From: an uncultured Thermodesulfobacteriota bacterium
GTDB taxonomy: Bacteria > Desulfobacterota > GWC2-55-46 > JADFVP01
DNA: 64,000 nt
Assembly (NCBI GenBank): GCA_964472295.1
Contig: CAYYJQ010000001.1
Location: forward strand, 85,313-149,312
Direction: 5' to 3'
The notes under the pieces are model-generated. The model was not told the DNA's origin. It searched no databases and saw only the letters and a list, made by a program, of their open reading frames with translations. Every line of letters starts with the position of its first letter. The first letter of the stretch is position 1. This document shows, in pieces, positions 32,384 through 55,085 of the stretch. The translations under genes and the position numbers were made by a program.

Positions 32384-32394
32384 CTCTAAAAAAC

Positions 32395-32512
32395 TCCCTA
32401 TTACTCTCTCTGCCGCGGAGGGCGATTAAAAATTTTTATTCCCCCCTATGTTACGGAGTTGCGATTAAAAATCCTTATTCCCTCCAATGCCACGGAACTG
32501 CGATTAAAAAAT
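32395..32512. repeat. 39-bp degenerate tandem repeat between rsmH and ftsL
   Basis: GCGATTAAAAAT at 32422, 32461 and 32500 with similar intervening sequence; the last copy contains the rsmH stop codon. Confidence 0.85.
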
Positions 32513-33439: not shown

Positions 33440-33441
33440 GG

Positions 33442-39177: not shown

Positions 39178-41811
39178 TCATGTATTTACCGCCTCGACGC
39201 GCTTCCGTCTCTTGAGATAGCGCCTTACAAAAGAAACCTCCTCCTCCCTGCTTGTTATCTTGCCGTCAAGACGCCTTGCGAGCAGGTTAGCGAGGACGCG
39301 GCCTATCTCTGGACCCTGCTTCAGCCCCATGGCCTTGAGGTCCGCGCCCCCAAGGTCCGTCGAGAGGCCGCGAAGGCGCGTAATATAGGTAGAGAGCCCC
39401 TTTCGCACCTCCTCCTCCCCTGTTCTTGACATGATGTAGAGTATCCCCTCAATGGGAAGGGGGTGCAACATGCGGTAGAGGTCGCTATTTTTCAAGGGGC
39501 ATCTCCTGGAGAGCCCCTTGAGGGTCTTTAGAAAAAGCCCCCTTGAGTTGATTGTCTCAACGGTCTTTCTTCCTGTTATGGAGAGCCTCTTCACTACTTC
39601 GTGGAGTTCGGCCTCGCCGAGGCAATCCGTTAAGACAAGAAAGAGTATGAGCCAGCCCTCGGCCCCTTCTCCTGTGTAGAGGAGGCGGTGCCAGCCTATG
39701 GCCTCCCTTGCCCTCTCAAAAAAGGCCTCGCGCGCGGAATCAAGGGTAATACCGGGATGAATGAGCGGGAGAAGGTTAAGGGCCTTAAGCCCCTTTATGG
39801 CCTTGAGTGCCGTATCCTCCTCAAGAATACTCCTGAGTTCCTCGAGTATCCGCGGCCCTGAAAGATGACTGAACACACCGAGGCTTACGGCCTTCTTTAT
39901 GAGATTGCGCGTATGAGGCTCTATGGTGAAGCCGAACTTCACGGAAAAACGTACGGCCCTGAAGGCCCGCGTGGGGTCCTCGATGAAACTCAGGTTGTGA
40001 AGGACGCGTATCTTTTTTTCCTTTATATCCCTCTGGCCGCCGAAAAAATCTATGAGCGTGCCAAAGCCCCCGGGATTTAGCCCGACGGCAAGGGTGTTTA
40101 TTATGAAGTCGCGCCTGTATATGTCGAGTTTGAGAGAAGATTGTTCCACAGTGGGAAGCGCCCCGGGGCTCTCGTAGTACTCAAGGCGCGCCGTGGCGAC
40201 GTCTATCTTGAAGCCATCTGGAAAGATAAGGACCGCTGTCCTGAACCTCTTGTGTGAGCGCACCTTGAGTTTCTTCTTGCGGGCATAGGCGCGGGCAAAG
40301 TCTATGCCGTCGCCGCCCTCGATAACGACATCCACATCAAGGTTCTCCCTTCCTAGGATAAGGTCGCGCACAAAGCCCCCAACGACATAGGCCCTGCACC
40401 CGAGACCGGCGGCAACCTCTCCAAGAGAGGCGAGTTTTTCAACAAGCCACCCAGGGAGCCTCTCACGCATGAGTTTTGTTATGACCTTGACCCTGGGCCT
40501 GTCCCCGCGTATATCCTCCTGAAGGAGCCTCAGTATGTCTGTCCTCGTTATAACCCCCCTTACCTCCTTATGGCTCACCACGGGTATGAGCCTCTGGCCG
40601 TGCCTGATGAACATCTCGCGTATATCGTCCACAGGGGTATCTGGCTCCACGCACTCGACATCAATGGTCATAAAGTCGCTGACAGGCGAGCCCCCGAGTC
40701 CATGGTACATGGCCTTGTCTATGGTCTGCCTCGTAATGACGCCCCTTAAGAGGCCGCGCTCCAGGACAGGGATGGCGTTAATGTTGTACCTGCCAAGTAT
40801 GGCGGCCACGTTGGTCATGGGAGAGGCGCTCTCAACTGTAATGGCCGGAAAACTCATTATCTCCGAGGCCCTCTTAATGGAGGCTATGCCCTTTTTCATG
40901 GCATCGAGGAGAAGGTCCCTTGCCTCTGTAAGGGTAAGGTCCTTGAGCGTTGCCGATGCCGCATGGGCATGACCGCCCCCGCCGATTTCCTTCAATACGC
41001 GCCCCACATCCACGCCCCTGCCCCTGCTTCTTGCGACTACATGAATCCGCTCGCCCGAGTCCACGAGCATGAAGAGTGTATCCATGCTCCCTATGTCCAT
41101 CATCTTGTGCGCGAGAATGGATATATCCCCCGTGTGCCGGGTAAAGACGCCCTGGGCCATGACCAGGTCATGGCCCCCATAAGTGAGGGTGGTGGAACTC
41201 TTCAGGAGTTCATTGAGGAAGGAGACCTCCTCGGGCGTAAGTTCCCTCTTGAGCATATCAGAGACAAGGGAGAGGTCCGCCCCCTTTGAGAGAAGAAAGG
41301 CCGCGGCCTCCAAATCGGCAACAGTGGTGGAGGGATACAGGAGGTTACCTGTGTCCTCGTATATGCCGGCCATGAAGAGGGTGGCCTCCTTGGCGCTAAT
41401 GGCGAGCCCCTTTTCACGCAGGACCTCAACGAGGACCGTTGTTGTGGCGCCATATGGCCTTAACATCTCAAGGCTGCCACGAAGCCCGCCCTTTGATTCA
41501 GGGTGGTGGTCATAGATGTGAATATCAACGCCCGTACGCCCCGTAAAAGGGCCAAGGGCGCCTATCCGCGACGGGCTCCTTACATCCACGAGCACGATGC
41601 GGGTAATGAGTGCGGTATCAATGTCTTTAATCTTCTGAAATGTATAGGAAGGGTCCAGGGAGAGGACTCCAGCCTTTGAGAGGGCGAGACGGGCCGTCTT
41701 CTCAAGGGATCCTGGAAGCACGAGCGCGGCCCCTGGATAGAGTTTTTTCGCGGCCACCATTGAGGCGAGGGCATCAAAATCAGTGTTGCTATGGGCGGTA
41801 ATAACTTCCAT
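39178..41811 (-). CDS. DHH-DHHA1-CBS-fused tRNA nucleotidyltransferase (probably A-adding)
   Basis: H.N.DFDA, YDHH, GGGGH..AAS, two CBS domains, VGGFVRD..DVDVV, RRDF..N, EDPTR. Confidence 0.92.
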   Translation of the reverse strand: MEVITAHSNTDFDALASMVAAKKLYPGAALVLPGSLEKTARLALSKAGVLSLDPSYTFQKIKDIDTALITRIVLVDVRSPSRIGALGPFTGRTGVDIHIYDHHPESKGGLRGSLEMLRPYGATTTVLVEVLREKGLAISAKEATLFMAGIYEDTGNLLYPSTTVADLEAAAFLLSKGADLSLVSDMLKRELTPEEVSFLNELLKSSTTLTYGGHDLVMAQGVFTRHTGDISILAHKMMDIGSMDTLFMLVDSGERIHVVARSRGRGVDVGRVLKEIGGGGHAHAASATLKDLTLTEARDLLLDAMKKGIASIKRASEIMSFPAITVESASPMTNVAAILGRYNINAIPVLERGLLRGVITRQTIDKAMYHGLGGSPVSDFMTIDVECVEPDTPVDDIREMFIRHGQRLIPVVSHKEVRGVITRTDILRLLQEDIRGDRPRVKVITKLMRERLPGWLVEKLASLGEVAAGLGCRAYVVGGFVRDLILGRENLDVDVVIEGGDGIDFARAYARKKKLKVRSHKRFRTAVLIFPDGFKIDVATARLEYYESPGALPTVEQSSLKLDIYRRDFIINTLAVGLNPGGFGTLIDFFGGQRDIKEKKIRVLHNLSFIEDPTRAFRAVRFSVKFGFTIEPHTRNLIKKAVSLGVFSHLSGPRILEELRSILEEDTALKAIKGLKALNLLPLIHPGITLDSAREAFFERAREAIGWHRLLYTGEGAEGWLILFLVLTDCLGEAELHEVVKRLSITGRKTVETINSRGLFLKTLKGLSRRCPLKNSDLYRMLHPLPIEGILYIMSRTGEEEVRKGLSTYITRLRGLSTDLGGADLKAMGLKQGPEIGRVLANLLARRLDGKITSREEEVSFVRRYLKRRKRVEAVNT

Positions 41812-42185: not shown

Positions 42186-43106
42186 TTAAAAGAGGAACTT
42201 TCTCTTTTTCTTCTTCTTATTCTTCTCTTTTTTCTTCTTTTCTTCTTCCAGTTTTTTCAGCCGCTCTTTTTCGGCCTTTTCCTTCTTCACATCCTCACCG
42301 GTAATCCAGTCCGGTACTTTTACCTCCTGTGAGTGGCAACGATAGCAATCCTCAAGGGGGAAGGCCACCTTTCCGTGGCAGGCCCCGCAGTACTCCCCTT
42401 TTATTATCTTCATCATATCCATGCCCAGGTTGCCGCCCTTTTTGGGCTTAAAGCGTCCGGGGTGGCAGGACTTGCAGTCAAGGACCTCGGTATGGGACTT
42501 ATGGGGGAAGAGCACATCTGGCGGGCCCGGTGCAAAGCGCGAGGATGGTATGACAATGTCTTTATCAAGGGCCTTGAGTTTACCTGTACCGTCAACGGAT
42601 GCCACTGGTTTTATCTTTTTATCATGGAGCGCCCTGACCCAGTTTATTTTGTTCCCAAAATCATCTGGGGGCATATCCTTCATTGCGAACTCGAACCTGG
42701 AGTTCTCAGGGACTTCCTTGCCGTAGGAATGACAGCGCAGGCACTTGTCGGCGCCAAAGACGTCCTCGCCGTTGTGACAGGCCCCGCACTTCTTCCCGGT
42801 CTCTATGTCGGCCTGTGTGACAGTGGTCTGGCCGGCCTTCCAGGCAAAGCCAAGGTCTGTGTGGCAGACATTGCATGTATAATACCTTCTGTGCGTCCAG
42901 TGCGTAAAGACCACCGGTGCGACCCCGGCGTCCGCGGCCGTATTGTTCTTCATTACAATGGAGCCGTACCATGAAGGCGGGGCCACCTTGTGATACCCCT
43001 TGCCCGGGGGTGTCCTTACTCCCTGGGCTACCGCAGGCCTCTTCGGCATTACTGCGAAGAAGGCAAAAACAAGGACCAATATGATAAACAAACGCAGGGA
43101 CTTCAC
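42186..43106 (-). CDS. Hexaheme cytochrome with two c7-type triheme domains
   Basis: Signal peptide; F.H..H + CNVCH/CGACH/CLRCH and F.H..H + CKSCH/CGACH/CYRCH; Lys-rich tail. Confidence 0.9.
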   Translation of the reverse strand: MKSLRLFIILVLVFAFFAVMPKRPAVAQGVRTPPGKGYHKVAPPSWYGSIVMKNNTAADAGVAPVVFTHWTHRRYYTCNVCHTDLGFAWKAGQTTVTQADIETGKKCGACHNGEDVFGADKCLRCHSYGKEVPENSRFEFAMKDMPPDDFGNKINWVRALHDKKIKPVASVDGTGKLKALDKDIVIPSSRFAPGPPDVLFPHKSHTEVLDCKSCHPGRFKPKKGGNLGMDMMKIIKGEYCGACHGKVAFPLEDCYRCHSQEVKVPDWITGEDVKKEKAEKERLKKLEEEKKKKEKNKKKKKRKFLF

Positions 43107-43137
43107 TCTGAAAAGACCTCCAGTAGAGATGATTTTA

Positions 43138-43551
43138 TCAGTACCCCCTGTGACATGCCGAGCAGAGTTTCAGATAATCCGTCCTCAACATGTTGGGGTA
43201 GCCTGAGCGGTTATGATTGTCATGACAGGTATAACACACCATCTTGCCGTCAAGGCTTAATGGCATGAGCCTTGTTATGTTTATCCCCGGACGCTTGCCT
43301 ATGGGGTGCTTTGCCACGGGGTGATTGCCAAGGTAACCCTCATGACACCTTGTGCATATTGTAACAGTATCGAACTTGAGGTCAGGCACGGCGCTTTTGT
43401 GACAGGATGCGCAGGCCTCCTTGTCTGAATAATCATGGGGGTTTTTCCCTCCTTTGGCCCAGGCCCTTCCCGAGACAAAGGGTCCTGCCGAAAGAGTAAA
43501 GGCAAGGACCATAATAAACGCGACGCCGTATGAGTTTAGCCTCATGAACAT
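43138..43551 (-). CDS. Small tetraheme cytochrome c
   Basis: Signal peptide, NPH, CASCH, CTRCH, CYTCH..H, CSACH; start moved to ATG 43551 (RBS present). Confidence 0.9.
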   Translation of the reverse strand: MFMRLNSYGVAFIMVLAFTLSAGPFVSGRAWAKGGKNPHDYSDKEACASCHKSAVPDLKFDTVTICTRCHEGYLGNHPVAKHPIGKRPGINITRLMPLSLDGKMVCYTCHDNHNRSGYPNMLRTDYLKLCSACHRGY

Positions 43552-43661
43552 GGAAAAGCCCCCCTTAGCCGACGCCACGCCCGGCCCCCTTAAGCGGTCA
43601 AGCGTCGCGGTCCTAACGCAAGTCCTATTCAAGGTAGTATGAAAAATCAGCCCATCTTTGA

Positions 43662-45896
43662 TTAATTGGAGCAGTCGGCAACGGTGTTGCAACTATATGT
43701 TGCCGTGACACCGCTCAATATATTGGTAAAGTTATGCTTGCAGACCCTGTCTGTAAGCGTATTTACTGTCCTGAAGTAGAGCTGCGCCCCTGTAGTCGTT
43801 GTCGCGGGCACATAGGACTCGATACAGGCCCCGTTCATGAGCCTGAACCCAAGGGGGCTCGAACCAGGCACAGAGCCCGCCGGTGCGTCGCTACCGTGAA
43901 TCCCCTTCATCATATTGTTGACCGTATCGTAGCTTCCGCCATGGCAGGTAAGGCAGAGGTTGCCAAATCGGTTGCTGTCATTACCAAGACCGACTCCAGT
44001 CTGATAAAAAGGCGAGTTAACGCCAAGACCATCCACGGGGTGCGGGACCCTTGAGAAGTTGGCGTTGGGGCCCACGTAGCCCTCGTCACCGTAGACATCG
44101 CGCCTGTGGCAATTATAGCAGAAGTTCTGGATAGAGCCCACGCCCCGCTCGTTGTTCCTGAGGACCCACTTGTTGTTGGAGGCATGAGGCCCCTGAGGGT
44201 CAGAGGCCGAGTCCGGGCCGTGACAATCCGTACAGGTCATGGTGGACTCATGGGTTACGTTGAAAAACCCTGTCCTGGTTCCTACTCCGGAAAAGTCTAT
44301 GTAGGTGAAGGTATTTGTCAGCCCCAGTCCATTGGCCGGCCAGTTGGGGTTGGCCGTTGGCAGGGGCCTGTTCTTTCCCAAGCCGAATACAGGGTGAAAG
44401 CCCTCGTTATTGATATTAAAGTCTTCCGTGGGGTCTGACTCGCGCACAATACTTCCGTCGGCATTGCCCGATGGAACGTCTGGAGGCATGATACCATAGG
44501 CGTAATAGGAATGACACTTAAGGCAGAGATAGCCCTCGAGATTATCACCGCCCGGCGTGGTAGAGGTAAAATCAACTACCTGGTAGATGAGGGCCGGACC
44601 GGATAGCGGCCACGTTGTTGGCTTAACTCCCCATGAACCAAGGAGATTGGGGGCTATGATATTGCCGTTAAGGCCTCCTATGGTGTGGTTGCCGGCCTCG
44701 GCCCCATGAGGGTTGTGGCAATCCACGCACTCGGCGTGTCTGTTGGTTCCGAGGTTTGTCGCGGTCTCGCGTACAGGATCGCCAGAGAAGCCCCTTGAAG
44801 GTATATGGGCCCCGCTTACACCCTTTACATCATGCTTTGAGAGCCTTATGAACATGGAGTCAATATCTTTTGAGGCTACGTTACCGTTGTGGCAGTTAAG
44901 ACACGTCCATTCCTCGTCCTCAATGAGGCCGCTAAGGGGGTTCGTGCCCTTCAAGAGGCTTTTTCCGGCCATGCCTCCGTGGCCGCGGTGACAGGCAAGA
45001 CAGCTCTGTATCTGTGGCGTGTCATCTGTAAAGCCCGCGCTGCCCATGTCAAGGTGATAGGGGTTCTCGCCGGACTGGTTCCATGTGGCCACGGAATCCC
45101 TGTGAACAGAGGGGTTGGTGTTCCAGTACCTCTTGTCATGACAGGCCTCGCAGAGGACGCCGTTCTCAAGGCTCGTCACCATGAAGGACGGGTATATGGT
45201 ACCGTGCGGGTCGTGACAGCTCGTGCACTGGACCATGTTGTTCTTGTCGAGTTTTACCTCGGCGGGAAGCGACGTTGATGGTTTAATCTCCACGTTTGCC
45301 GGATAGGAGAGGGCGTAGTCAAAAGAAAGGGGGTGGTCATCCCGGAGGTCCGTGCCTATGAAGGCCGTAGATGCGGAGGTAAGCTTTCCGGCTGTCACGC
45401 CAGGGCCCGTAACAGGCAACGTGGTAGGCCCTGTTACTCCTGTCAGGTTCAGAATAGAGCCTATGGCAATGGTTCCGTCATGACAGGAAAGACAGAGCTT
45501 CGACGACCCCGTGGGCTGTCCCATGGTGGCCACCACTGTATCGCTCTGATATATGTTGTATGTCGCCCCGGAGTCGGCCCTGTTCCATAGTGGCCCGGAG
45601 GGGTTGGCGTTATGAGGCGCGTGACAGAAGACACAGATCTTTGTCGTGGTTACGGTCTTCACGGCAGCAGATGAGAATACGCTGAAGTTGTGTTTTGTCG
45701 CGGCCACAGTGGCAAGGGCTCTTGGCGCCCCAAGGCCCAATAATGAGAGAGCGAAGACCAGGAGAACCGCAGACCTGACCATAACACGCGCCCTTGAACG
45801 CGCCCCCTTGAATCCCAAAGCAGGCAACACGCAGAGAAGGGGTGCCACTTTTGCCCGGCTTTTCATGAAATCGCTCACTCTCAAGTCAACCTCCAA
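43662..45896 (-). CDS. Secreted 11-heme cytochrome c with an OmcE-like N-terminal tetraheme module
   Basis: 11 CxxCH motifs; signal peptide ending in ALA (true start may be ATG 45866 or 45782); T/S/N/G-rich. Confidence 0.9.
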   Translation of the reverse strand: MEVDLRVSDFMKSRAKVAPLLCVLPALGFKGARSRARVMVRSAVLLVFALSLLGLGAPRALATVAATKHNFSVFSSAAVKTVTTTKICVFCHAPHNANPSGPLWNRADSGATYNIYQSDTVVATMGQPTGSSKLCLSCHDGTIAIGSILNLTGVTGPTTLPVTGPGVTAGKLTSASTAFIGTDLRDDHPLSFDYALSYPANVEIKPSTSLPAEVKLDKNNMVQCTSCHDPHGTIYPSFMVTSLENGVLCEACHDKRYWNTNPSVHRDSVATWNQSGENPYHLDMGSAGFTDDTPQIQSCLACHRGHGGMAGKSLLKGTNPLSGLIEDEEWTCLNCHNGNVASKDIDSMFIRLSKHDVKGVSGAHIPSRGFSGDPVRETATNLGTNRHAECVDCHNPHGAEAGNHTIGGLNGNIIAPNLLGSWGVKPTTWPLSGPALIYQVVDFTSTTPGGDNLEGYLCLKCHSYYAYGIMPPDVPSGNADGSIVRESDPTEDFNINNEGFHPVFGLGKNRPLPTANPNWPANGLGLTNTFTYIDFSGVGTRTGFFNVTHESTMTCTDCHGPDSASDPQGPHASNNKWVLRNNERGVGSIQNFCYNCHRRDVYGDEGYVGPNANFSRVPHPVDGLGVNSPFYQTGVGLGNDSNRFGNLCLTCHGGSYDTVNNMMKGIHGSDAPAGSVPGSSPLGFRLMNGACIESYVPATTTTGAQLYFRTVNTLTDRVCKHNFTNILSGVTATYSCNTVADCSN

Positions 45897-45975
45897 TCAA
45901 GGACCGCCTGCCGCCTGCCTGATAAAAAGGCCGGGGCCCTTTACAAGCCTCCTGCCCACTGCCTGGCTAAAGGTT

Positions 45976-46132
45976 CCGGGGCTGTTTCATGCCCACCGCA
46001 CCCTGCTTTCATAATAGTACCGGGGCAACTTCATGCCCCCTGCACCCTGCTTTCACAATGGTGCCGGGGCTGTTTCATACCCACCGCGCCCTGCTTTCAC
46101 AATGGTGCCGGGACAACTTCATGCCCCCTGCC
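45976..46132. repeat. 44-bp tandem repeat, 3.6 units in ABAB order
   Basis: CCGGG starts at 45976, 46020, 46064 and 46108; units alternate GCTGTTTCAT and RCAACTTCAT. Confidence 0.9.
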
Positions 46133-46144
46133 ACTTACGAGGGT

Positions 46145-47281
46145 CTAACCATGCTGACGGGCATCACCTGTGCCGCCGCCAAGATACTCGAAGACCTCTA
46201 TCCTCCTGTTATAGGGGTCGGCCACGTAAATATTGTCAGCCCTGTCTATGAAGACTCCGCCGGGCATCCAGAACATTCCTGGCCCAGCGCCGAGTTTGCC
46301 GAAGTTAAGGAGGAAGGCGCCCTTTCTCGAAAAAATCTGAACAGTATCGAATATTGCGTCGGCCACATATATATTGCCCTCAGAGTCCACTGCCACACCC
46401 TTTGGCCTTCCGAAGTCTCCGCTTCCGTCACCGTGCTGGCCGAAACTCGTCTCATATCTGCCGTTCATGTCAAATATCTGCACCCTGTAGTTCATGGAGT
46501 CAGTGACGTATATATCTCCCCTTCCGTCCACGAAGATGTCTGTCGGGTAGTTGAACTGCCCGGGGTTAGAGCCTATGCCCCCGAAGGTCTTTATGAGCTC
46601 ACCGTCAAGGTTGAATATCATCACCTTGTGCTCGCCTGTATCAACGACATAAAGCCGTTTTCTCGGAACATCAAGGGCGATGCCCGTGGGCCGGGCGCCG
46701 CCATCAAGGGAACGTATCAACCGGCCCTTGGGATTGAAAATATAGATCTTCCTCGCCGTGGAATCGCTTACGTATATATTATTCTTACTATCCGTGGCCA
46801 CGCCTATGGGAGAAGAGAGGGAGTCCTTGCCCGCCCGGTCTATATAGGTGTACTTCTTTTTCTTCCTGTCGTAGATGTGAACCCGCTTGTAAGCGGTGTC
46901 GGCCACGATAATCCTGCCCATGGTGTCGACAGTTATGCCGTAGGGCTTTACCATGGACCTCTTGTCCCCGCCAAGGAGGACATCCACGAGCTTTTTGAAG
47001 AGACCTTTTTTTATTCCAACATCTTCGGGCCTTGCCAGCGAGAGGTCATAGGACACACGCGCCGGGGCAGGTGGTGATGGCCAGATAAGCGGCTTGTGCT
47101 TAAAGTCCTTAGACTGCTGGGAGGTGACATCAGGTGAGCCGCAGCCAAGGGCCGCGAAGAGGAAGACAAAGAGGAGGAGACCAAGGCAAAAGATGCCCCT
47201 TGCCCTGCCCTGCTCCTTACCAGGCAGGCGGCCATGTACTTCACAAGTGTCCCTGGTCATTATCTTGAAGGTCATAGCCAC
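46145..47281 (-). CDS. NHL-repeat beta-propeller lipoprotein
   Basis: Lipobox ALGC, WPSPP..AR, repeated P.G/D-I.VD..G.IYV.D..N.R.Q.F. Confidence 0.92.
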   Translation of the reverse strand: MAMTFKIMTRDTCEVHGRLPGKEQGRARGIFCLGLLLFVFLFAALGCGSPDVTSQQSKDFKHKPLIWPSPPAPARVSYDLSLARPEDVGIKKGLFKKLVDVLLGGDKRSMVKPYGITVDTMGRIIVADTAYKRVHIYDRKKKKYTYIDRAGKDSLSSPIGVATDSKNNIYVSDSTARKIYIFNPKGRLIRSLDGGARPTGIALDVPRKRLYVVDTGEHKVMIFNLDGELIKTFGGIGSNPGQFNYPTDIFVDGRGDIYVTDSMNYRVQIFDMNGRYETSFGQHGDGSGDFGRPKGVAVDSEGNIYVADAIFDTVQIFSRKGAFLLNFGKLGAGPGMFWMPGGVFIDRADNIYVADPYNRRIEVFEYLGGGTGDARQHG

Positions 47282-47300
47282 ACCATATCAATATCCGGGT

Positions 47301-47936
47301 CTATTTTCTGTGACAATACTGACAAATATCGAGCCCCTCGCTCCTCAAGAGGACCTCCTGGTCCGCCCCCCAGTTCGCCCTGCCATAGAGGAGCCCCCTC
47401 TCGTGGGGGTTGTGGCACGTCGCGCAAAAAATTTTCTTGGTCGCCGGGTCAAGCGGTATGAGGACAGGGACCTCTTTTTTCTCGAGCCTCATGTTAAGAT
47501 AAAGCCTTCTGGAGAGTGTGGTCAGGTGGCTTGGGGCCACAAAACCGCTCATCCGCGGCCCTACTCCCTCGACGCCAGGGTGTTTCTTTACCACATGGCA
47601 TATGTAGCAATTCTTGTTTATGTCTTTTTTGAAGCGGAGTTCCCAGTTCACGGGTGATTTGAGATTCTCTGTATCAGGCATCTTCTTGTGGCAGATAAGG
47701 CACTTTGACCAGAGTATCTCGCCCTCGTCGTTAATCTGCTCATGGGGATTCATGATGGATTTGCGCACGGCAAACCTGTCATAGGAGAGTTTTGGAGGGG
47801 CCTTTTTTTCCTTGGCATGAAGCGGTACGGCGCCCGCGAAAAAAAATAGAGAGAGGACGGCGAGACCCTTTAGCAACGCAAAGCGCGATTCTCGTATCAT
47901 AATGACTCTATCCTTGATCATGGACGCGGTCATCAA
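47301..47936 (-). CDS. Tetraheme cytochrome c
   Basis: Signal peptide, NPH, CLICH, CYICH, CATCHNPH, CQYCH. Confidence 0.9.
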   Translation of the reverse strand: MMTASMIKDRVIMIRESRFALLKGLAVLSLFFFAGAVPLHAKEKKAPPKLSYDRFAVRKSIMNPHEQINDEGEILWSKCLICHKKMPDTENLKSPVNWELRFKKDINKNCYICHVVKKHPGVEGVGPRMSGFVAPSHLTTLSRRLYLNMRLEKKEVPVLIPLDPATKKIFCATCHNPHERGLLYGRANWGADQEVLLRSEGLDICQYCHRK

Positions 47937-47993
47937 TGGACCGTTGCCCGTAATAAATCTTTACACAAGATGAGGTTAAGAGACGATTAGAGG

Positions 47994-49145
47994 TCAGCGC
48001 CCAAAGGCGTAGACATAACCGTCCTTTGAGCCCACAAAGAGCCTGCCTCCTGATATGGCCGGCGACGAGTGTATGCCCCCGCCGGTGGCATAACTCCAGC
48101 TTACCTCGCCAAGGATAATATCTATGGCGTAGAGGCGTCCATCCTCAGAGCCCACGAAGAGAAAGCCATTGGATGTTACGGCAGGGGTTGAATTAAGAGG
48201 CGCGGGGAGTTTGTAATCAGCCAGTTCCCTTCCACGCTGCATGCCATAGGCCTTTATATGGCCGTCCGTGAATGCCACGTAGATCTTCTTGCCCGCCACC
48301 ACGGGAGAGGCATAGGCAAGGGCCGCACCCGTCTTTTTCCTGAGGACGATCTTTCCGCTCTTTACATCAAAGCCCTGAAGCATCCTGCTTCCAAGGACAA
48401 TATAAACCCTGCCGTCTTTTATAGTAGGACTCGAGTATATTGCCGAAAATGAGATAAATCCCCAGTTCCTGCCTCCGCTCTTTCCTGCCTGCGAGTAGAC
48501 AAGACCATTCTTCCCGGCAAAAATTACGTTGCCGTCATAATAGACTGGAGAAGAGTATATGCCGCTGTACCTGTCATTGGCGAACATCTTCATTCGCCAC
48601 TCCCTCTTGCCAGTACTGGCGTTAAGGGCGTAGATGTGAAGGTCCGAGGAGCCGAAGAAGACCCTGCCGTCGCCGACTACGGGAGACGTCAGGATGGGCC
48701 CTTCTGTGGTAAAACTCCAGAGGAGTTTACCGTCAGAGGCCTTGAGGCAGTAGAACTTTCCGTCCTTTGAGCCAAAGTATACCCTGCCGTCGGCAACGGC
48801 CGGGATAGAGAGTATCTCGCCGCCAGTGGCAAAGCTCCAGAGTTTCTTTCCACTGGCCTCGTCAAGGGCGTAGAGTTTCTTGTCATAAGAGGCGACGAAG
48901 ACCACACCTCCCGATACCACGGGTGAGGAGTAGACCGGGCCATTGGTCTTGAACCTCCAGAGGACCTTTAGCGGCGGCCTCGGGGCCCTGGCGGCAAAGG
49001 AGGTATGCGAGCGGTCCTTCATGAACATGGGCCAATCGGCAAGAACCCCTGCCGGGAAAAGGGCGAGGAGAAATGAGCAGGCGATAAGGGATGAAAGGAA
49101 CTTGGTTATATAAGCGACGCGGACTCTCGTTGATCTCTGTCTCAT
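47994..49145 (-). CDS. PQQ-like (BamB-type) beta-propeller secreted protein
   Basis: Signal peptide, DWPMF, repeated W.F.T.G.I.SSP.V..G.V..GS.D..LYAL. Confidence 0.9.
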   Translation of the reverse strand: MRQRSTRVRVAYITKFLSSLIACSFLLALFPAGVLADWPMFMKDRSHTSFAARAPRPPLKVLWRFKTNGPVYSSPVVSGGVVFVASYDKKLYALDEASGKKLWSFATGGEILSIPAVADGRVYFGSKDGKFYCLKASDGKLLWSFTTEGPILTSPVVGDGRVFFGSSDLHIYALNASTGKREWRMKMFANDRYSGIYSSPVYYDGNVIFAGKNGLVYSQAGKSGGRNWGFISFSAIYSSPTIKDGRVYIVLGSRMLQGFDVKSGKIVLRKKTGAALAYASPVVAGKKIYVAFTDGHIKAYGMQRGRELADYKLPAPLNSTPAVTSNGFLFVGSEDGRLYAIDIILGEVSWSYATGGGIHSSPAISGGRLFVGSKDGYVYAFGR

Positions 49146-49151
49146 AAAGTA

Positions 49152-49757
49152 TTATACCCTGAATTTTGATAACTCATCTATGGCTTCATCGCTTGCGATG
49201 GCCATCACCGTAAGCCTCTGCCTGAGGGTATCCACCTTCAATGCGCTTCCAGGGGCCTCCATGGAACGGCTTATCTCCCCCATGCTTTGCTCAATGCCTC
49301 GGGAGAGGTCTTTTATGACGGCGAATCTAGCGCCGAAGACTGCCATTGCCATGTTAAAGGACTCCCGCACATCAGAGAGGCCCCTTGCGCCGGACTCAAC
49401 ACGCGCGGTGAAGTCGCCGTCCCCGGCCTTTTTCATGGCGCTCAGGTAAGGCGCGAGACCTGCCTCGAGACGCCTTACGAGAAAAAACGCCAGGACAAGG
49501 CCTCCAAGGGCGATAAAGAAGGCGCTCGCTATGGAGAGCTTCCATATTACAGGCCAGATTATATCCAAGGTGGAATTGGCCTGCAAGTGAATTTTATATA
49601 GCCTCGCATCGAGCGTCCTGTCAATGAGAAAATAGGATGCCGTAAAGTCCAGGAGGAGTCCCAGCCCGACTATTACTGCAAGGCCTATAACAAAACCTCC
49701 CTGAAGCCCTCTGGAGATAAAATACCTTCTCCTTCTCATTCCCGGGAATAGACCCAT
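49152..49757 (-). CDS. Small 2TM-HAMP membrane protein
   Basis: RRRRYFI N-terminus, two TMs, HAMP-like GDFT.RV...FN.AM, short coiled coil, no output domain. Confidence 0.75.
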   Translation of the reverse strand: MGLFPGMRRRRYFISRGLQGGFVIGLAVIVGLGLLLDFTASYFLIDRTLDARLYKIHLQANSTLDIIWPVIWKLSIASAFFIALGGLVLAFFLVRRLEAGLAPYLSAMKKAGDGDFTARVESGARGLSDVRESFNMAMAVFGARFAVIKDLSRGIEQSMGEISRSMEAPGSALKVDTLRQRLTVMAIASDEAIDELSKFRV

Positions 49758-49818
49758 TTCGCACCTCGCATATTATCATAAGGTAAGATTCATTTCAACT
49801 ACGTCCATAGGTCTGCGC

Positions 49819-50886
49819 TTACTTGACATGACAGGCAAGGCAGAGGTTGCTCCCGTAATTATTCATGACCAGTTCCGCGTGCCCCCTCGCGTAGGGGCTG
49901 TGACAGGTACCGCAACCTACGCGCCCGCCAAAGAGCTTTATCTGAGGAGGAAGGTCCTTAAGGGGCCTGTAGGCCCCATGATACTTTCTCCTTGCCTCAA
50001 AATAGGATACGCCCACAGGGTGAGTGAGGCCCGTGGTGTTGCTGTGCTGGCTCCTGAAGAGATCAAAGTTCGAGACCGTGGACTCGGAGCCAAAGGTAGC
50101 GTCATGGCAACTCATGCACTTTATGCTCACCTCGTCAAGGCGCACCGCACCTCTGTTTCCCCGGCCATAGGCGATCTTTACCACGCTGCCCATATGGGCG
50201 CTCACTCCCGATACGCTGTGCATGTTCTCATCAAGGCCGCTGTGGCAGAGCACGCAGAACCCCTGTCCTCTGGCCCTTGTCCGCAGATGAGCGGAACCAA
50301 ACCCTGTCTTATGCGCACGGTGGCAGGTTACGCAGGTTACCATGCCGCGCCAGTCAAGGGGGAGATACCCAGGTATGTCCCTCGTGGGCCTTACATCAAC
50401 GGGGTGCGTGAGGCCGTCCTCCTGGTTATGACACTTGCCGCAGAGCACAGTAACGTCTTTACGGAGCGTTGGTCTTCTCTCCCCTGGCGACGGAATCTTT
50501 ATGTGGCAGCCAAGGCACTTGCCCCTGAAGTCATGGTAACTCCCCCCCCTGCCGCCCCCCCGGGGTATCGAGGCCCGCCTGACCTGCCCAAGGGGCTCCA
50601 CGTACATATCCAGGGGCGCGTCGCCGCCCCGCCCCTCCCGCCCCCCGCGCGCCCCATCAGCACCTTCCGGCCCCTGCGCCCACTGCGTCTCTTCGGCTTC
50701 CTCGCCTGTAATCACCCACCTGCCCCATTGACGAAGCCTCTCCCACCGCCCCCCGGAGGCAAAAGAAGAGGAAGAGGCGATAATGACGATAATAAGGAAA
50801 GAGAGGAGGAGGCATATCTTCTTCACCTGTTTCTTTTCACTCCAGGTCAAGGATAAGCGCAGGGCCCGGCCAGGTCCTTCACTCAC
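49819..50886 (-). CDS. Heptaheme cytochrome c
   Basis: Signal/TM segment, Gly/Arg-rich linker, CLGCH, CGKCH, CVTCH, CVLCH, CMSCH, CGTCH, CLACH. Confidence 0.9.
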   Translation of the reverse strand: MSEGPGRALRLSLTWSEKKQVKKICLLLSFLIIVIIASSSSFASGGRWERLRQWGRWVITGEEAEETQWAQGPEGADGARGGREGRGGDAPLDMYVEPLGQVRRASIPRGGGRGGSYHDFRGKCLGCHIKIPSPGERRPTLRKDVTVLCGKCHNQEDGLTHPVDVRPTRDIPGYLPLDWRGMVTCVTCHRAHKTGFGSAHLRTRARGQGFCVLCHSGLDENMHSVSGVSAHMGSVVKIAYGRGNRGAVRLDEVSIKCMSCHDATFGSESTVSNFDLFRSQHSNTTGLTHPVGVSYFEARRKYHGAYRPLKDLPPQIKLFGGRVGCGTCHSPYARGHAELVMNNYGSNLCLACHVK

Positions 50887-51490
50887 CCGTGGTCTTAAGG
50901 TCCCGCACCCGTGTCCTGATACGCTCGGCGCGCCTCTTGAGTTCCTTCAGCCTTGCCCTTATCTCCTCTTCGTTGGCCCCGGCACTGCCCATGGCCGAGA
51001 CCTTTTGCGAGAGCTCACTGCAGGTCTCTCTCAGAAAGGCGAAGTCCCTCGCCGAGTCCGAGACAAGCCCGGCGAGCCTGCCGGCCATATTGTTCTTCTC
51101 CGTGGCCAGCATGGCGAACTGGTCCTTCTCCCTGAAAAATGTCTTGCCCGTGATGTCACCCGAGGCAAGACGCTCGAGGTCGCGGGCGAGCCTGAAAAGA
51201 GGACCCGCTATCTTGTGAGAGAAGAAAATGGAGACAAGGGCCGTAAAGACCACGGTGAGGACAAGTATGACCACGGAATATACCGAGGCCAGCATGAGGG
51301 AGAGGATATTTACCTTGAGGTTGTAGATGGTGTAGATGGCCTCGCCGTAGGAACGCCCAAGATCCCGGCCTGCGGCAAGATAAAGAAAGAGGGCAAAGGC
51401 CGCAAATCCGGCCAGTGTGAGGAGGCAGTACTTTAGACCAAACCACATCTCGTAACCACGCTCAAGGAGCGCTTCTCTCTTCATGGGCAT
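50879..51490 (-). CDS. Small 2TM-HAMP membrane protein (paralogue of 49152-49757)
   Basis: Two TMs, SHKIAGPLFRL...GDIT...FREKDQ, coiled coil. Confidence 0.8.
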   Translation of the reverse strand: MPMKREALLERGYEMWFGLKYCLLTLAGFAAFALFLYLAAGRDLGRSYGEAIYTIYNLKVNILSLMLASVYSVVILVLTVVFTALVSIFFSHKIAGPLFRLARDLERLASGDITGKTFFREKDQFAMLATEKNNMAGRLAGLVSDSARDFAFLRETCSELSQKVSAMGSAGANEEEIRARLKELKRRAERIRTRVRDLKTTGE

Positions 51491-51570: not shown

Positions 51571-51763
51571 CGGCGCCCCTTGCGCGCCTTGTCCGGGTAT
51601 CAATGATGGAAAAGACAATAGGAGAGGTCCTCAAGGACCGGGCGGCTACTTAAGGTATCGGCTGGAAAGGCGGAAAGTTTAGGGCTTGAACAAGAGGCAG
51701 GCCCAGGAGGCCCCGGGCAATGAAAAAAGGCGCGAAGCGCGGGTATATTCACGCCAGACGCTG

Positions 51764-51793
51764 TTGACTCAGGGCCGCTTACTGTGTTATAAG
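51764..51793 (+). promoter_or_regulatory. Promoter of tRNA-Cys
   Basis: TTGACT-18 nt-TATAAG with an extended -10 TG. Confidence 0.6.
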
Positions 51794-51843
51794 GCATGGG
51801 TTCCGTGACCTTCAGGTCCGGTCCGGCCAGCAGAAACAATATT

Positions 51844-51919
51844 GGCGGCGTACCCAAGTGGCTAAGGGAGCAGTCTGCAAAACTGCCATCCAGCGGTTCG
51901 AATCCGCTCGCCGCCTCCA
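51844..51919 (+). tRNA. tRNA-Cys (GCA)
   Basis: GGCGGCG...GCAGT-CTGCAAA-ACTGC...GGTTCGAATCC...CGCCGCC-T-CCA; U73 discriminator. Confidence 0.97.
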
Positions 51920-52077: not shown

Positions 52078-52118
52078 AAAAAAACAAGAGGGGCCCCGAA
52101 AAACGGGGCCCCTCTTGT
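52078..52118 (-). terminator. Intrinsic terminator of the ligase-GGT-M20 operon
   Basis: Perfect 15-bp stem ACAAGAGGGGCCCCG/CGGGGCCCCTCTTGT followed by a T-run on the minus strand. Confidence 0.9.
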
Positions 52119-52152
52119 CGTTTAATAAGACAACTTTAAATTTGGGATTCCC

Positions 52153-53394
52153 TCAGGGACAGGGCACAACCTCTGGCAGTCCCTTGAGGAGATAGCATGC
52201 CGATAACCATGAGAGGGTCTTTACGCCCACAAGGAGCGCCTCCTCATCAATATCAAAGTCCGGCGTATGGAGCTTTGCTGTAATGCCCTTTTTTTTATTT
52301 GAAGTGCCGAGGCGAAAGAGCGCGCCAGGTATCTTCTCTGTAAAATAGGCAAAGTCCTCGGCCCCCATCTTTGGCTGAGGCATGGTCACGACATTATCCT
52401 CGCCAAGCACATGCATGGCGCACCTTCTTATGAGCCCGTCAACGCCAGGGTCGTTCACCACGGCGGGAGTGCCGAACTCATAGTCCAGTTCATAGCCCCC
52501 GCCCATGCCCTCGGTTACTCCCTTTATGGTCTCTTCCACGAGGTCCCGCACCTTGAGCCTCTCGGCCCTGCTGAGTGTGCGCACCGTGCCCTCCATTTCC
52601 ACCCTGTCGGCTATAACGTTAATAGCCGTGCCGCCGTGAATGGTGCCTATGGAGATGACGGCATGGTGCAATGGGTCGGTGCGCCTGCTTACTATATGCT
52701 GCATTGCGTTAATAACAAGGGCGGCAAGGAGCACGGCGTCCACGCACTGGTGCGGCCTTGAGGCGTGGCCGCTCTTGCCCTTTACCACCACCCTGAACTT
52801 GTCCGCCGCGGCTGTCATTATGCCCGGCTTGTGGGCTATGGTCCCGGCCTCCATCTCAGGGAAACAATGGAGGGCCACAATGGCCCCGGGCACCGGGTCC
52901 TCGAGGGCCCCGTCTCTTATCATGGCATGGGCCCCGGCGATGCTCTTCTCCTCAGAGGGCTGAAAAATAAGTTTGACGTTCCCCCGGAGCCTCTCTCTCA
53001 GAGAAGAAAGGACCATGGCCGTGCCGAGGAGAACGGAGGTATGCACGTCATGACCACAGGCGTGCATGACGCCGGGAACGTCAGAGGCGTAATCCACTTT
53101 CTTGCAGTCCTGTATTGGAAGGGCGTCCATGTCGGCCCGAAGGGCCATTGTGCGCCCCTCGCCTGCCCCTCCCCTCACAATCCCAATGACCCCGTGGCCG
53201 CCTACGTTCCTTCTTACCTCCAGCCCGAGGCCCACAAGTACCTCTGCCACAAGGGCCGCTGTATTCTCTTCCTCTCCCGAGAGCTCGGGCGACTGATGGA
53301 GTACACGCCTCACATCGCGCACCCTCTCCATTACCGCCCCGGCCTCTTTTATTACTACATCGAAGAGTTGCGCCTCTTCCCTACTCTTGTCCAT
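52153..53394 (-). CDS. M20D family amidohydrolase
   Basis: LHQSPELS, RADMDALP, MHACGHD.H, FQPSEE, GHASRPH, AEDFA, LHTPDF. Confidence 0.93.
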   Translation of the reverse strand: MDKSREEAQLFDVVIKEAGAVMERVRDVRRVLHQSPELSGEEENTAALVAEVLVGLGLEVRRNVGGHGVIGIVRGGAGEGRTMALRADMDALPIQDCKKVDYASDVPGVMHACGHDVHTSVLLGTAMVLSSLRERLRGNVKLIFQPSEEKSIAGAHAMIRDGALEDPVPGAIVALHCFPEMEAGTIAHKPGIMTAAADKFRVVVKGKSGHASRPHQCVDAVLLAALVINAMQHIVSRRTDPLHHAVISIGTIHGGTAINVIADRVEMEGTVRTLSRAERLKVRDLVEETIKGVTEGMGGGYELDYEFGTPAVVNDPGVDGLIRRCAMHVLGEDNVVTMPQPKMGAEDFAYFTEKIPGALFRLGTSNKKKGITAKLHTPDFDIDEEALLVGVKTLSWLSACYLLKGLPEVVPCP

Positions 53395-53465
53395 GCCGGC
53401 AATACTCCTTTCAAAATATCTTCATAACGCAAGGGGCCCTTTGTGCAAGGCCCGGACGCGCTGTA

Positions 53466-55085
53466 TTAAAGACAGCTACCCTCATCATCTCCGCCGCCGT
53501 GCTCCACCACGGCTCCGCCCCGGCGCCCGTCCCCTGAGGCCGTAAAACCGCCCTCTCGGCAGAGTATGGTATGGACGCCGCCAAAGTACATATCCTTCCT
53601 GGTCCAGCGCTTGACACGCACGCCCATGTCCTCGATGGTATCCATCTCCCCGACGGCCACACCGGCCTCAACGTCAAGGACGCCGCCCTCAAAGTGCACC
53701 CGCGGCGCGTTCACGGCCTCAAAGACGGGGAGACCAAAGTCAACTATATTGAGTATGGTCTGGAGTATGGCGCTCCGAATCCTCTTCGACCCCCCTGTGC
53801 CGAGAATAATCTCCCCCTTTCCCTCTCGCGTTACTATGGTTGGGGCCATCATGGAACTGAGCCTTACCCCCGGCGCAAACCTGTGAAACCCCTGGGGGTT
53901 GAGGTCGTGCTCGCCGAGCATATTGTTCATCATTATGCCTGTTCCTGGTATCATGAAACCAGAACCCATGCCCACAGACGTTGTAAGGGAGACCATGTTG
54001 CCCTCTTCATCGGCCACGCTTATATGGGTGGTGTCGCCGAGGGGACGTGCCGCGGCCCTGCCCGCGAGGTCCTCCCTGAAGGGCCCCATGTGCTCATTGG
54101 ATAGAAACCACTCCGAGAGCCCATCCTCAAAGAGGCGGGCATCAAAGGAATCTCGCCGGGCCCTGTCCGTCACCTCCATTACATGGGCAAGTCGCGCCAT
54201 GTAATGGGCGGAATTATGCCCAGACCCCGCGACGTCCATGTCCTCGAGGAGTTTAAGGGAGAAGGCTATGAGCGTACCCCCCGATGATGGCGGGGGGTTG
54301 GTGTATATGGTCCTCCTGCGGTACTTGAACTCAAGGGGCTTTCTTACGATGGGCCTGTACCGATCGAGGTCTTCCGCCGTGATAAGCCCGCCCATTGCGG
54401 GCCCGAACTCCTTTACAAGTCCCTCCGCGAGATGCCCCCTGTAAAAACTCCTGAGCCCGTCTCTTACGAGAGACTCGAAGGCGCGCGCCATGTTCTCGTG
54501 CACGATTACGCCTCCCTCTGGTATGGAAGCGCCCCCTGGCAGATATACTGTTGAGGACTCCTCCGAGGAGCGGAGCATGGGCTCAAGAAGGGTGTTGAAG
54601 TAGGCCTGCGCGGCATTTACAGGGACCCCGCCGCGGGCCATGGTTATGGCGGGCTCAAGGAGAACATCCACTGGCAGTCGGCAATGCCTCCTGTGCACCA
54701 TCTCGAGGCCCGCGATTACGCCGGGCACCCCTGATGACGCCCTGCCTATATACACTTCCTGGAGCGCGTCGGCAAAATCAATATGGAGGGGGAAAAAATC
54801 AAGGTCCTTGCCACCCCCCTTGTTCCCCTTGCCACAGTTGCCCCCCTTCTCAAACTCAGGGCCGAGCCCTGGCATGGCCGTAAAGAAATCATAGAGGATA
54901 TTGGCGCCTTCTGCCGTACGCGCGTTCATGAAACCGCCGCCTCCGGCGCTCGTAAGGGCGCTCTCAGCCACAAATGAAGCAAAGGACGCGGCAACCGCCG
55001 CGTCAAAGGCATTACCGCCTCTCTCGAACATCTCTGCCCCGGCCCTGGCCGTAAGTTCGTGCCCGGCGGCGATTATTCCCCTCAA
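53466..55085 (-). CDS. ggt: Gamma-glutamyltransferase
   Basis: GGNAFDAAVA, GGGGF, GVPG, PPPSSGG, autocleavage GD|TTHISV, SSMMAP, GTGGS; TTG start 55085 overlaps the upstream stop. Confidence 0.92.
   Translation of the reverse strand: MRGIIAAGHELTARAGAEMFERGGNAFDAAVAASFASFVAESALTSAGGGGFMNARTAEGANILYDFFTAMPGLGPEFEKGGNCGKGNKGGGKDLDFFPLHIDFADALQEVYIGRASSGVPGVIAGLEMVHRRHCRLPVDVLLEPAITMARGGVPVNAAQAYFNTLLEPMLRSSEESSTVYLPGGASIPEGGVIVHENMARAFESLVRDGLRSFYRGHLAEGLVKEFGPAMGGLITAEDLDRYRPIVRKPLEFKYRRRTIYTNPPPSSGGTLIAFSLKLLEDMDVAGSGHNSAHYMARLAHVMEVTDRARRDSFDARLFEDGLSEWFLSNEHMGPFREDLAGRAAARPLGDTTHISVADEEGNMVSLTTSVGMGSGFMIPGTGIMMNNMLGEHDLNPQGFHRFAPGVRLSSMMAPTIVTREGKGEIILGTGGSKRIRSAILQTILNIVDFGLPVFEAVNAPRVHFEGGVLDVEAGVAVGEMDTIEDMGVRVKRWTRKDMYFGGVHTILCREGGFTASGDGRRGGAVVEHGGGDDEGSCL

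Follow-up and report, generated by a model that had tools for sequence, protein, structure and literature searches.

In the filaments formed by the tetraheme cytochrome OmcE, the subunits are linked through a histidine that ligates a heme of the neighbouring subunit (PMC9473688; literature statements here and below refer to the accessible parts of each source). The minimal omcE gene cluster has been described as consisting of two multiheme cytochromes, two propeller lipoproteins, OmcE itself and a large barrel (PMC13712944, section 8), and another family of nanowires has been proposed to consist of OmcE-like proteins with five hemes (PMC13712944, section 9). According to the same paper, the ideal anchor of an OmcE filament would be OmcE-like with a spare histidine; a tip protein with more exposed hemes was also asked for, and no candidate was known to its authors from the omcE clusters. 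The other closely related system is the uetABCDEFGHIJ cluster of Candidatus Tenderia electrophaga, which encodes a tetraheme cytochrome (UetA), a peptidyl-prolyl isomerase (PPIase; UetB), a barrel (UetC), three c7-type trihemes (UetD, UetE and UetG), a cupredoxin (UetF), two NHL proteins (UetH and UetI) and an undecaheme cytochrome (UetJ) (bioRxiv 10.1101/2022.05.06.490989). The uet cluster has also been reported from some Gallionella (PMC10734462). Here, we describe a cytochrome operon at positions 42186-51490 of a 64,000-nucleotide stretch of DNA, hereafter the window, from an uncultured Thermodesulfobacteriota bacterium (GCA_964472295.1, contig CAYYJQ010000001.1, referred to as C1). Its largest cytochrome begins with an OmcE-like domain and continues to eleven hemes.

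The open reading frames (ORFs) of the window were listed and translated, and the CxxCH motifs were counted in each protein. The interval is tiled by nine co-oriented ORFs of the minus strand. In the order of transcription, they encode a HAMP protein with two transmembrane segments (HAMP1), a heptaheme cytochrome (c7h), a second two-segment HAMP protein (HAMP2), a PQQ-like propeller, a small tetraheme cytochrome (c4a), an NHL-repeat lipoprotein, the undecaheme cytochrome (c11), a very small tetraheme cytochrome (c4b) and a c7-type hexaheme (c6). The nine genes hold 32 CxxCH motifs in total (7 + 4 + 11 + 4 + 6), and both this count and the gene order agree with a preliminary description of the locus. 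No CX3CH, CX4CH or CxxCK motif was found in a scan of the nine translated proteins. All five cytochromes start with a hydrophobic stretch, as judged by eye on the translations, which bears out the export signals that the preliminary description had assigned to them.

The centrepiece of the cluster is c11 (43662-45896, minus strand), a protein of 744 amino acids (aa) with 11 CxxCH motifs. A phmmer search of solved structures matched its residues ~41-255 to the OmcE of Geobacter sulfurreducens (PDB 7TFS) with an E-value of 1.1e-20 and matched c11 to the OmcE bundle subunit of Desulfuromonas soudanensis (PDB 9YUQ) with an E-value of 1.9e-20. With a profile of 38 c11 homologues, the E-values were 4e-38 for 7TFS and 3e-34 for 9YUQ, and OmcE residues 7-232 of 232 were covered. 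The motifs at C88, C135, C224 and C249 and the histidines H69, H95, H188 and H231 of c11 align to the corresponding residues of OmcE, in which four further histidines have been named as conserved heme ligands (PMC13712944, section 7). These four motifs and four histidines are invariant in both 38 and 66 homologues of c11, and all 11 CxxCH motifs are invariant in the 38. A profile comparison (hhalign) of the short OmcE-like tetrahemes with the N-terminal domain of c11 gave a Prob of 100 and an E-value of 1.7e-67. The homology to the omcE locus that the preliminary description had proposed is real. Meanwhile, what it had placed at the centre of the cluster as an OmcE-like cytochrome turned out to be the N-terminal third of an 11-heme protein and not a filament-type tetraheme.

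The OmcE-like domain spans residues ~63-255 of c11 (45132-45710, minus strand). While the chain of OmcE ends two residues past its fourth motif, c11 runs ~490 residues further and has seven more CxxCH motifs. These lie in a heptaheme extension (residues ~256-654; 43935-45131, minus strand), which is followed by a Cys-rich C-terminal tail of ~90 aa (43665-43934, minus strand). In c11, a complete tetraheme domain of the OmcE type is combined with a heptaheme module. The Pfam matches of c11 are generic multiheme families only, with no other named domain among them, and the similarity of the heptaheme extension to OmcS in a profile search is weak and scattered (E 3.7e-5). In an alignment of 66 sequences from many phyla, c11 has 13 conserved histidines outside the motifs for its 11 hemes, and H69 is located seven residues from the predicted mature N-terminus. 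The tail is specific to the order to which the window belongs: its cysteines C691, C719, C736 and C742 are conserved across 21 own-order sequences and are found in no more than 8% of the sequences in the wide, 66-sequence alignment, the homologues from other phyla lacking the tail. This tail may fold into a small domain that is held by disulfide bonds and serves for binding or anchoring.

In two other genomes of our phylum sample, the slot of c11 is occupied by two genes, one for a tetraheme and one for a heptaheme. One of these loci (L048) encodes an NHL lipoprotein, an OmcE-like tetraheme of 222 aa and a heptaheme of 379 aa with a hydrophobic signal sequence of its own. The other (L044), from a single-contig genome of 3.58 Mb, encodes an NHL lipoprotein, a 253-aa OmcE-like tetraheme, a 412-aa heptaheme again with its own signal and a 146-aa c4b-like cytochrome, and the order of these genes is that of the NHL, c11 and c4b genes in the window. 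Both tetrahemes terminate at the fourth motif or no more than 10 residues past it, and the heptahemes align to c11 residues 291-607 and 343-607. As each of the heptahemes has its own signal peptide, they are true separate genes and not the products of frameshifts, and c11 is accordingly the 4+7 fusion, or the counterpart of a fission. The equivalence of the fused and split forms implies that the heptaheme module acts in physical continuity with the OmcE-like unit. It should be noted that the alignment of the mature N-terminal histidine of the split heptahemes with a specific histidine of the fusion is ambiguous.

Relatives of c11 are widespread. Full-length matches were found in 24 of the 40 genomes of relatives (own genome included) and matches at E<=1e-10 in 29 of them. 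Among 8000 database candidates scored against c11, 4910 proteins reached E<=0.001. The full-length relatives are counted in thousands, none of them bearing a functional name, and OmcE-like domains are also part of proteins that have many other lengths and come from many other phyla. When one genome per species was scanned, 80 loci with c11 homologues were obtained; in these loci, ORFs were taken by a simple longest-ORF rule and genes were labelled by BLAST. Four of the 80 contain close relatives of c11, all from metagenome-assembled genomes (MAGs) of uncultured 'Deltaproteobacteria', and the remaining ones are 30-40% identical to c11 over residues ~40-607. They come from Sulfurimicrobium, Sulfuricella, Gammaproteobacteria, Nitrospirota, Planctomycetota, Verrucomicrobiota (including Limisphaerales), Bacteroidota, Calditrichota, relatives of Ignavibacteria, Acidobacteriota and one Geobacteraceae MAG, and three are from isolates. 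The nearest named relatives are in MAGs of Sulfurimicrobium and Sulfuricella, with 38-40% identity over c11 residues 42-606. A separate observation concerns one further locus (L054; G124:C170, 10387-17568), where a frame of 2393 aa with 46 CxxCH motifs directly follows a 251-aa OmcE-like tetraheme and a 1061-aa NHL-containing protein.

The conserved synteny was examined in 20 loci of relatives of the same order. All nine genes are present in identical order in 15 of them, three are collinear but interrupted by contig ends, and the other two, from another family, have six genes only, from the propeller through the c7-type hexaheme. Across the wider set, an NHL gene stands directly upstream of the 11-heme gene, on the same strand, in 56 of 75 cases; two of the others are at the edge of the locus and 17 are without it, some of the latter possibly being artefacts of the longest-ORF rule. 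The undecaheme is genetically coupled across many phyla to a directly upstream gene for an NHL-propeller lipoprotein. The preliminary description had named an NHL lipoprotein gene as a neighbour of omcE in Geobacter, and this agrees both with the clusters described in PMC13712944 and with those of the phylum sample. Four loci of that sample (L041, L042, L045 and L046) fit the published minimal omcE cluster, with cytochromes of 8 to 23 hemes, NHL genes, an OmcE-like protein of ~220-300 aa and a non-heme protein of 750-800 aa.

The loci homologous to the operon frequently encode a non-heme barrel family of ~660 aa as well. In 50 of 78 loci, a member of this family is encoded no more than 10 kb away, and in 34 of the 78 the undecaheme, a short OmcE-like tetraheme and the ~660-aa barrel family are encoded together. 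The usual order in these loci is the short tetraheme, NHL, in some cases a five-heme protein, the ~660-aa protein, NHL and the undecaheme. The preliminary description had listed the HAMP pair and the PQQ-like propeller as additions to the Geobacter locus. For the propeller this held, since it was found in four of 78 wide loci, all of the window's own order. The HAMP/heptaheme/HAMP trio, on the other hand, recurs beside 11-heme genes of a gammaproteobacterium (L064), a member of Nitrospiraceae (L084), a Deltaproteobacteria MAG (L086) and one further locus (L050).

The Pfam hits and a scan of the flanking genes revealed no porin gene inside 42186-51490, as had been stated before; this is true of the cluster, but the genome does encode a predicted barrel. 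A hidden Markov model (HMM) of 35 sequences of the ~660-aa barrel family found one frame in the genome, C1:58076-60109, with an E-value of 4.8e-16. It lies outside the window on the same contig, upstream of the operon and 59 kb from the nearest gene of the latter. An HMM of a four-sequence barrel set found nothing in this genome. The AlphaFold2 (AF2) model of the barrel, made from an alignment of its orthologues, has a predicted local distance difference test score (pLDDT) of 89.2 and consists of a signal helix followed by 32 beta-strands. Foldseek ranked MtrB first among its matches (6R2Q chain B, E 5e-9), and in most of the orthologues the C-terminal residue is aromatic.

The barrel gene belongs to a second cluster (C1 ~57-70 kb), located at 5273-17696 of the locus L135 (C1:52001-72000). 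This cluster encodes a TPR protein, the barrel, two proteins with FGE-sulfatase domains (one of them carrying two CxxCH motifs), a monoheme cytochrome c, a SurA-like PPIase, two OmcE-like tetrahemes of 329 and 344 aa whose N-terminal regions are long and of low complexity, an NHL lipoprotein that is 45% identical to the NHL protein of the operon and a c7 triheme lipoprotein (L135:14998-15633). In one MAG locus (L057), the NHL and c7 triheme genes of the second cluster (48% identity each) are divergent from, and adjoin, a propeller-to-c6 operon. Among the 40 relatives, 22 have both the undecaheme and the barrel, 15 have neither, two have only the undecaheme and one has only the barrel, so that the two are present or absent together in 37 of 40. 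One family includes two genomes that lack both. The genomes with the undecaheme only are 66% and 98% complete and the one with the barrel only is 81% complete; in the 98% complete genome, the undecaheme is split across two contigs.

We favour, with moderate confidence, the explanation that the operon is the undecaheme half of an extracellular electron-transfer system of the OmcE/Uet type, in which the barrel serves as the conduit and the undecaheme together with the NHL lipoprotein as its outer end. Electrons would be relayed through the periplasm by c6, c4a and c4b, and the outer membrane would be crossed by a cytochrome, or by the heme chain itself, by way of the distant barrel. Held or assembled by the NHL lipoprotein, the undecaheme would form a rod of ~11 hemes on the outer face, where electrons would be exchanged with minerals, OmcE-like tetrahemes or partner cells. 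As a guess, the HAMP/heptaheme/HAMP trio would sit in the inner membrane and either sense the redox state of the chain or provide its docking site on the membrane side. By gene content, the predicted electron-uptake (uet) clusters contain relatives of the undecaheme. A sampled metabolic scan of the own genome showed no DsrA over the cut-off, one gene of the COX1 family of heme-copper oxidases and one fragment match to a NiFe-hydrogenase. The lack of DsrA over the cut-off and the presence of the oxidase are compatible with either direction of electron flow.

Several observations weigh against this explanation. An inner-membrane quinol oxidoreductase was not identified, and a porin, a PPIase and a short OmcE-like gene are all absent from the operon itself. 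The match of the own barrel to the ~660-aa family is weak (57 bits), and an HMM of six canonical barrels of the Desulfuromonadia OmcE clusters has no hit in the genome at E<=100. The TM-score between the barrel and MtrB is low (0.32), TonB-dependent receptors and LptD scoring almost equally. The co-occurrence counts overstate independence, because the relatives are kin. The AF2 model of c11, obtained from a 38-row alignment, has a mean pLDDT of 49.8 (~25-35 in the OmcE-like domain and ~80 in the Cys-rich tail) and is unusable. In the NHL-associated cytochrome clusters of Desulfovibrio ferrophilus, compared here by description, the cytochromes are mostly predicted to be periplasmic and a deletion spared the reduction of Fe(III) oxide (PMC9769857). 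Not counted among these observations is the prediction of a complex between the NHL propeller (residues 48-378) and the OmcE-like domain (residues 63-275) with four hemes, whose score of 0.00 is evidence neither way.

The same data can be read in other ways. The preliminary description had named the cluster a candidate nanowire system; in this reading, the 11-heme protein itself would polymerise head-to-tail like OmcE, giving a filament with a longer repeat or with side branches. In agreement with this, the OmcE-like domain is complete and has the full set of eight heme ligands, the N-terminal histidine among them; the NHL lipoprotein neighbour shared with the omcE clusters and the above-mentioned proposal that five-heme OmcE-like proteins form nanowires also fit. 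Nevertheless, we find it improbable, because c11 continues for 490 residues beyond the fourth motif at which OmcE ends, and because its conserved histidines suffice to ligate 11 hemes in cis, so that no heme need await the histidine of a neighbour; in addition, UetJ was modelled as a single bar-shaped protein in the Tenderia preprint (bioRxiv 10.1101/2022.05.06.490989). We give equally little credence to the possibility that the operon is a periplasmic or inner-membrane module for electron storage or for the respiration of soluble substrates, which never reaches the surface and to which the barrel is unrelated. The operon indeed has no porin, its c7-type and small tetraheme proteins belong to kinds well known as carriers in the periplasm, and the D. 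ferrophilus cytochromes mentioned above, largely predicted to be periplasmic and deleted with no Fe(III) oxide phenotype (PMC9769857), set a precedent. However, barrel and undecaheme are concordant in 37 of 40 relatives, 50 of 78 loci have a barrel gene at a distance of up to 10 kb, the closest solved homologue of c11 is an extracellular filament protein, and the NHL partner is a lipoprotein.

Somewhat better founded, though still unlikely in our estimate, is a role of the undecaheme as the terminal subunit, at the tip or the anchor, of a filament of short OmcE-like tetrahemes, which in this genome would be the 329- and 344-aa proteins. Its OmcE-like domain would dock on the end of the filament; as the far end of the undecaheme is occupied by the fused heptaheme, growth would stop there and seven extra hemes would be presented. 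Such a role would fit the known inter-subunit histidine-heme ligation of OmcE (PMC9473688) as well as the anchor with a spare histidine and the tip protein called for in PMC13712944. The 13 conserved non-motif histidines for 11 hemes in 66 sequences, with H69 near the mature N-terminus, point in the same direction, and so do the 34 of 78 loci that encode short OmcE-like proteins, barrel and undecaheme and the split forms, in which the heptaheme is a separable module after the OmcE-like unit. On the other hand, which OmcE histidine is donated in trans is taken here by analogy, and the histidine count is no more than suggestive, as some of these residues are perhaps not ligands. In the organism itself, the short OmcE-like genes are separated from the operon by 59 kb and encode long low-complexity N-terminal regions, and none of the carriers of the undecaheme family has been seen to form a filament. 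The undecaheme as the outer end of a barrel conduit remains our preferred explanation.

The remaining proteins of the operon were compared with Pfam, NCBIfam and their own homologues. The preliminary domain calls were largely confirmed, as the PQQ-like, NHL and c7-type families were found; the HAMP call stayed below the cut-off in HAMP1 and had no family hit in HAMP2. HAMP1 (50879-51490, minus strand; 203 aa, no CxxCH) has two transmembrane segments, a HAMP domain (Pfam E 0.0018, under the cut-off) and a C-terminal coiled coil. Its NCBIfam matches are the HAMP regions of histidine kinases, its atlas neighbours are HAMP clusters, and a short periplasmic loop and an 'HKIAGP' motif are conserved in its 25 homologues. 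HAMP2 (49152-49757, minus strand; 201 aa, no CxxCH), also with two transmembrane segments, has no Pfam or NCBIfam match and shows a conserved 'YFLIDR..LYKIHL' loop in 18 homologues. BLAST of HAMP1 against the orthologues of HAMP2 gave E-values of 5e-8 to 1e-5, which makes the two proteins distant paralogues, and both are without an output domain. The heptaheme c7h encoded between them (49819-50886, minus strand; 355 aa, 7 CxxCH) matches Paired_CXXCH_1 with an E-value of 7.5e-15 and has sub-threshold similarity to the GSU2203/DmsE decahemes. Its N-terminal ~115 aa, comprising a hydrophobic segment and a Gly/Arg-rich linker, are variable and its core, residues ~116-355, is conserved; the relatives cover ~0.68 of the protein.

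The secreted PQQ/BamB-like beta-propeller (47994-49145, minus strand; 383 aa, no CxxCH) matches PQQ_2 with an E-value of 9e-52. It was rejected as the housekeeping BamB, given its 169 bits against a cut-off of 285 for TIGR03300 and a better candidate on the contig C26, a BamB-like locus that was the best match in a six-frame search of the genome (125 bits). As its Cys23 is not conserved, the propeller is probably not a lipoprotein; its 'ADWPMF' motif is conserved. The NHL-repeat protein (46145-47281, minus strand; 378 aa, no CxxCH) is a six-bladed beta-propeller lipoprotein with a Pfam E-value of 3.4e-34 for the NHL repeats. The Cys47 of its 'LGC' lipobox is conserved in at least 85% of 21 aligned sequences, and the protein is 32-38% identical to the NHL proteins of canonical omcE-type clusters.

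The tetraheme c4a (47301-47936, minus strand; 211 aa, 4 CxxCH) was tried as an OmcE homologue and rejected, since its matches to solved structures were no better than E 0.16 and included no OmcE chain; in its profile, a resemblance to OmcE-like proteins is limited to the last ~45 columns, which contain a paired CxxCH motif. By BLAST, c4a is similar to part of the 8-heme cytochromes in canonical omcE-type clusters, and hhalign related it to c4b with 99% probability (E 3.6e-18). The tetraheme c4b (43138-43692, minus strand; 184 aa, 4 CxxCH) probably starts at the Met at residue 48 and has a mature part of ~105 aa. It matched 9YUQ weakly (E 0.049) and the short OmcE-like proteins with 98.3% probability over 104 columns (hhalign, E 1.2e-14), so that it may be their miniature relative. 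Profiles rich in heme motifs inflate profile-profile scores, and for this reason we regard c4a and c4b only as possibly belonging to the superfamily of the OmcE-like tetrahemes. The hexaheme c6 (42186-43106, minus strand; 306 aa, 6 CxxCH) consists of two triheme domains, each matching TIGR04257 (E 1.6e-37, 127.5 bits against a cut-off of 40), and also matches Cytochrome_C7 (E 6.6e-25), in keeping with its earlier designation as c7-type. It ends in a strongly basic, Lys/Glu-rich tail of ~35 residues (42186-42290, minus strand; KKEKAEKERLKK...KKKKKRKFLF), the sequence of which is poorly conserved among the relatives.

The operon is flanked by housekeeping genes, one of the DHH-CBS-poly(A) polymerase/CCA type at 39178-41811 and one for an M20 peptidase at 52153-53394. 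The terminator-like hairpin of the M20 peptidase gene (52083-52119, minus strand; a 16-bp stem, in which 11 of the pairs are G-C, and then a T run) lies upstream of the operon and marks its 5' boundary. An ORF of 85 aa at 51600-51857 was rejected as a gene and treated as spurious, since it has no counterpart of at least 40% coverage in the loci of 20 relatives. Beyond the hairpin, the genes of the M20 peptidase, a gamma-glutamyltranspeptidase and a GCS2 glutamate-cysteine ligase follow each other at 52153-56233 (minus strand), which points to thiol metabolism of the glutathione type; in several relatives, the first two are likewise located next to the operon. On the other side, the window contains an ordinary-looking dcw cell-division/cell-wall cluster at 18893-33876 (minus strand), which starts with mraZ, rsmH (MraW) and a penicillin-binding protein transpeptidase gene (three genes scanned). 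Between this cluster and the operon are the minus-strand genes of a HAMP-adenylate/guanylate cyclase (35106-36530) and of an RNase H/RVT_3-domain protein (37245-37913).

The genome itself comprises 2.2 Mb in 91 contigs and is rated 100% complete. A CxxCH survey found two large multiheme clusters only, namely the operon and one on contig C8. The latter shows adjoining reading frames with 21, 15 and 4 CxxCH motifs at C8:34921-38937. As the operon is one of only two such clusters in a 2.2-Mb genome, its cytochrome system is probably central to the energy metabolism of this Thermodesulfobacteriota organism.

Nanowires and porin-cytochrome conduits are usually treated separately, and the operon suggests a direct link between them. 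Its undecaheme, which by gene content is of the UetJ kind, consists of an OmcE-like nanowire-subunit domain fused to a heptaheme, and the same pair also exists as two genes. This makes it a widely distributed candidate for ending or connecting OmcE-type heme chains, the question raised in the 2026 D. soudanensis paper. If the undecaheme did cap filaments, the Uet conduits and the OmcE nanowire clusters of more than ten phyla would form a single system, in which every OmcE-like unit has an NHL propeller of its own. Cultured carriers of the undecaheme family exist, namely Desulforhopalus sp. IMCC35007, Planctomycetales bacterium ZRK34 and Desulfobacterota bacterium M19.

Compared with the OmcE clusters of G. 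sulfurreducens and D. soudanensis, the operon shares a domain homologous over the full length of OmcE, with four motifs and four distal histidines, an adjoining gene for an NHL propeller lipoprotein and further multiheme cytochromes. It differs in that OmcE is a stand-alone tetraheme of ~220-230 aa, whereas the OmcE-like domain of the operon is fused to seven more hemes. Unlike those clusters, the operon contains neither a barrel nor glycosylation genes, and the canonical barrel family of ~750-800 aa was not detected in the genome; it adds the HAMP/heptaheme/HAMP trio and the PQQ-like propeller.

The likeness to the Uet system lies in the undecaheme with no other named domain, the NHL gene directly upstream of it and the triheme domains of c7 type, all matched by gene content only. 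The Uet-type tetraheme, PPIase and barrel are absent from the operon and are found together at C1 ~57-70 kb, so that, unlike in the single uet cluster, the parts are split over two loci 59 kb apart. Jointly, the operon and the second cluster hold every Uet part except the cupredoxin, for which there was no hit among the Pfam matches of the two clusters, the search being confined to these. The operon goes beyond Uet in its HAMP trio, its PQQ-like propeller and the Cys-rich C-terminal tail of c11. The host of Uet is an aerobic electroautotroph, and that of the operon belongs to an uncultured Thermodesulfobacteriota lineage. The name OmcE does not occur in the accessible text of the Uet papers (bioRxiv 10.1101/2022.05.06.490989, PMC10734462), and in the literature found it is not stated that undecahemes of the UetJ type begin with an OmcE domain, although supplementary tables may list homologues.

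Among more distant systems, the MtrCAB complex of Shewanella (6R2Q) resembles the proposed arrangement in its large barrel threaded by a heme chain, MtrB being the best Foldseek match of the barrel. The predicted barrel has 32 strands and a TM-score to MtrB of only 0.32, and no operon protein is a homologue of MtrA or MtrC over the cut-off; the scores for the DmsE and GSU2203 families of NCBIfam were 18-52 bits against cut-offs of 192-325. The DFE_0448-0451 and DFE_0461-0465 clusters of D. ferrophilus, proposed to encode an outer-membrane cytochrome complex widespread in sediment bacteria (PMC5815863, PMC9769857), likewise combine multiheme cytochromes with NHL beta-propeller genes, a comparison made by description only; they were reported to have no porin. 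Finally, the extracellular electron-transfer clusters EET1-4 of peat Acidobacteriota and Verrucomicrobiota combine porins, scaffolds and cytochromes of 8-13 hemes that were called 'OmcE-like' on structural grounds (bioRxiv 10.64898/2026.05.27.727921). The 4+7 fusion and its split forms are not described for them in section 9 of the accessible text. By description, EET1-4 share with our operon the conserved clustering and the OmcE-like multihemes, and Verrucomicrobiota are also among the sources of the loci homologous to the operon.

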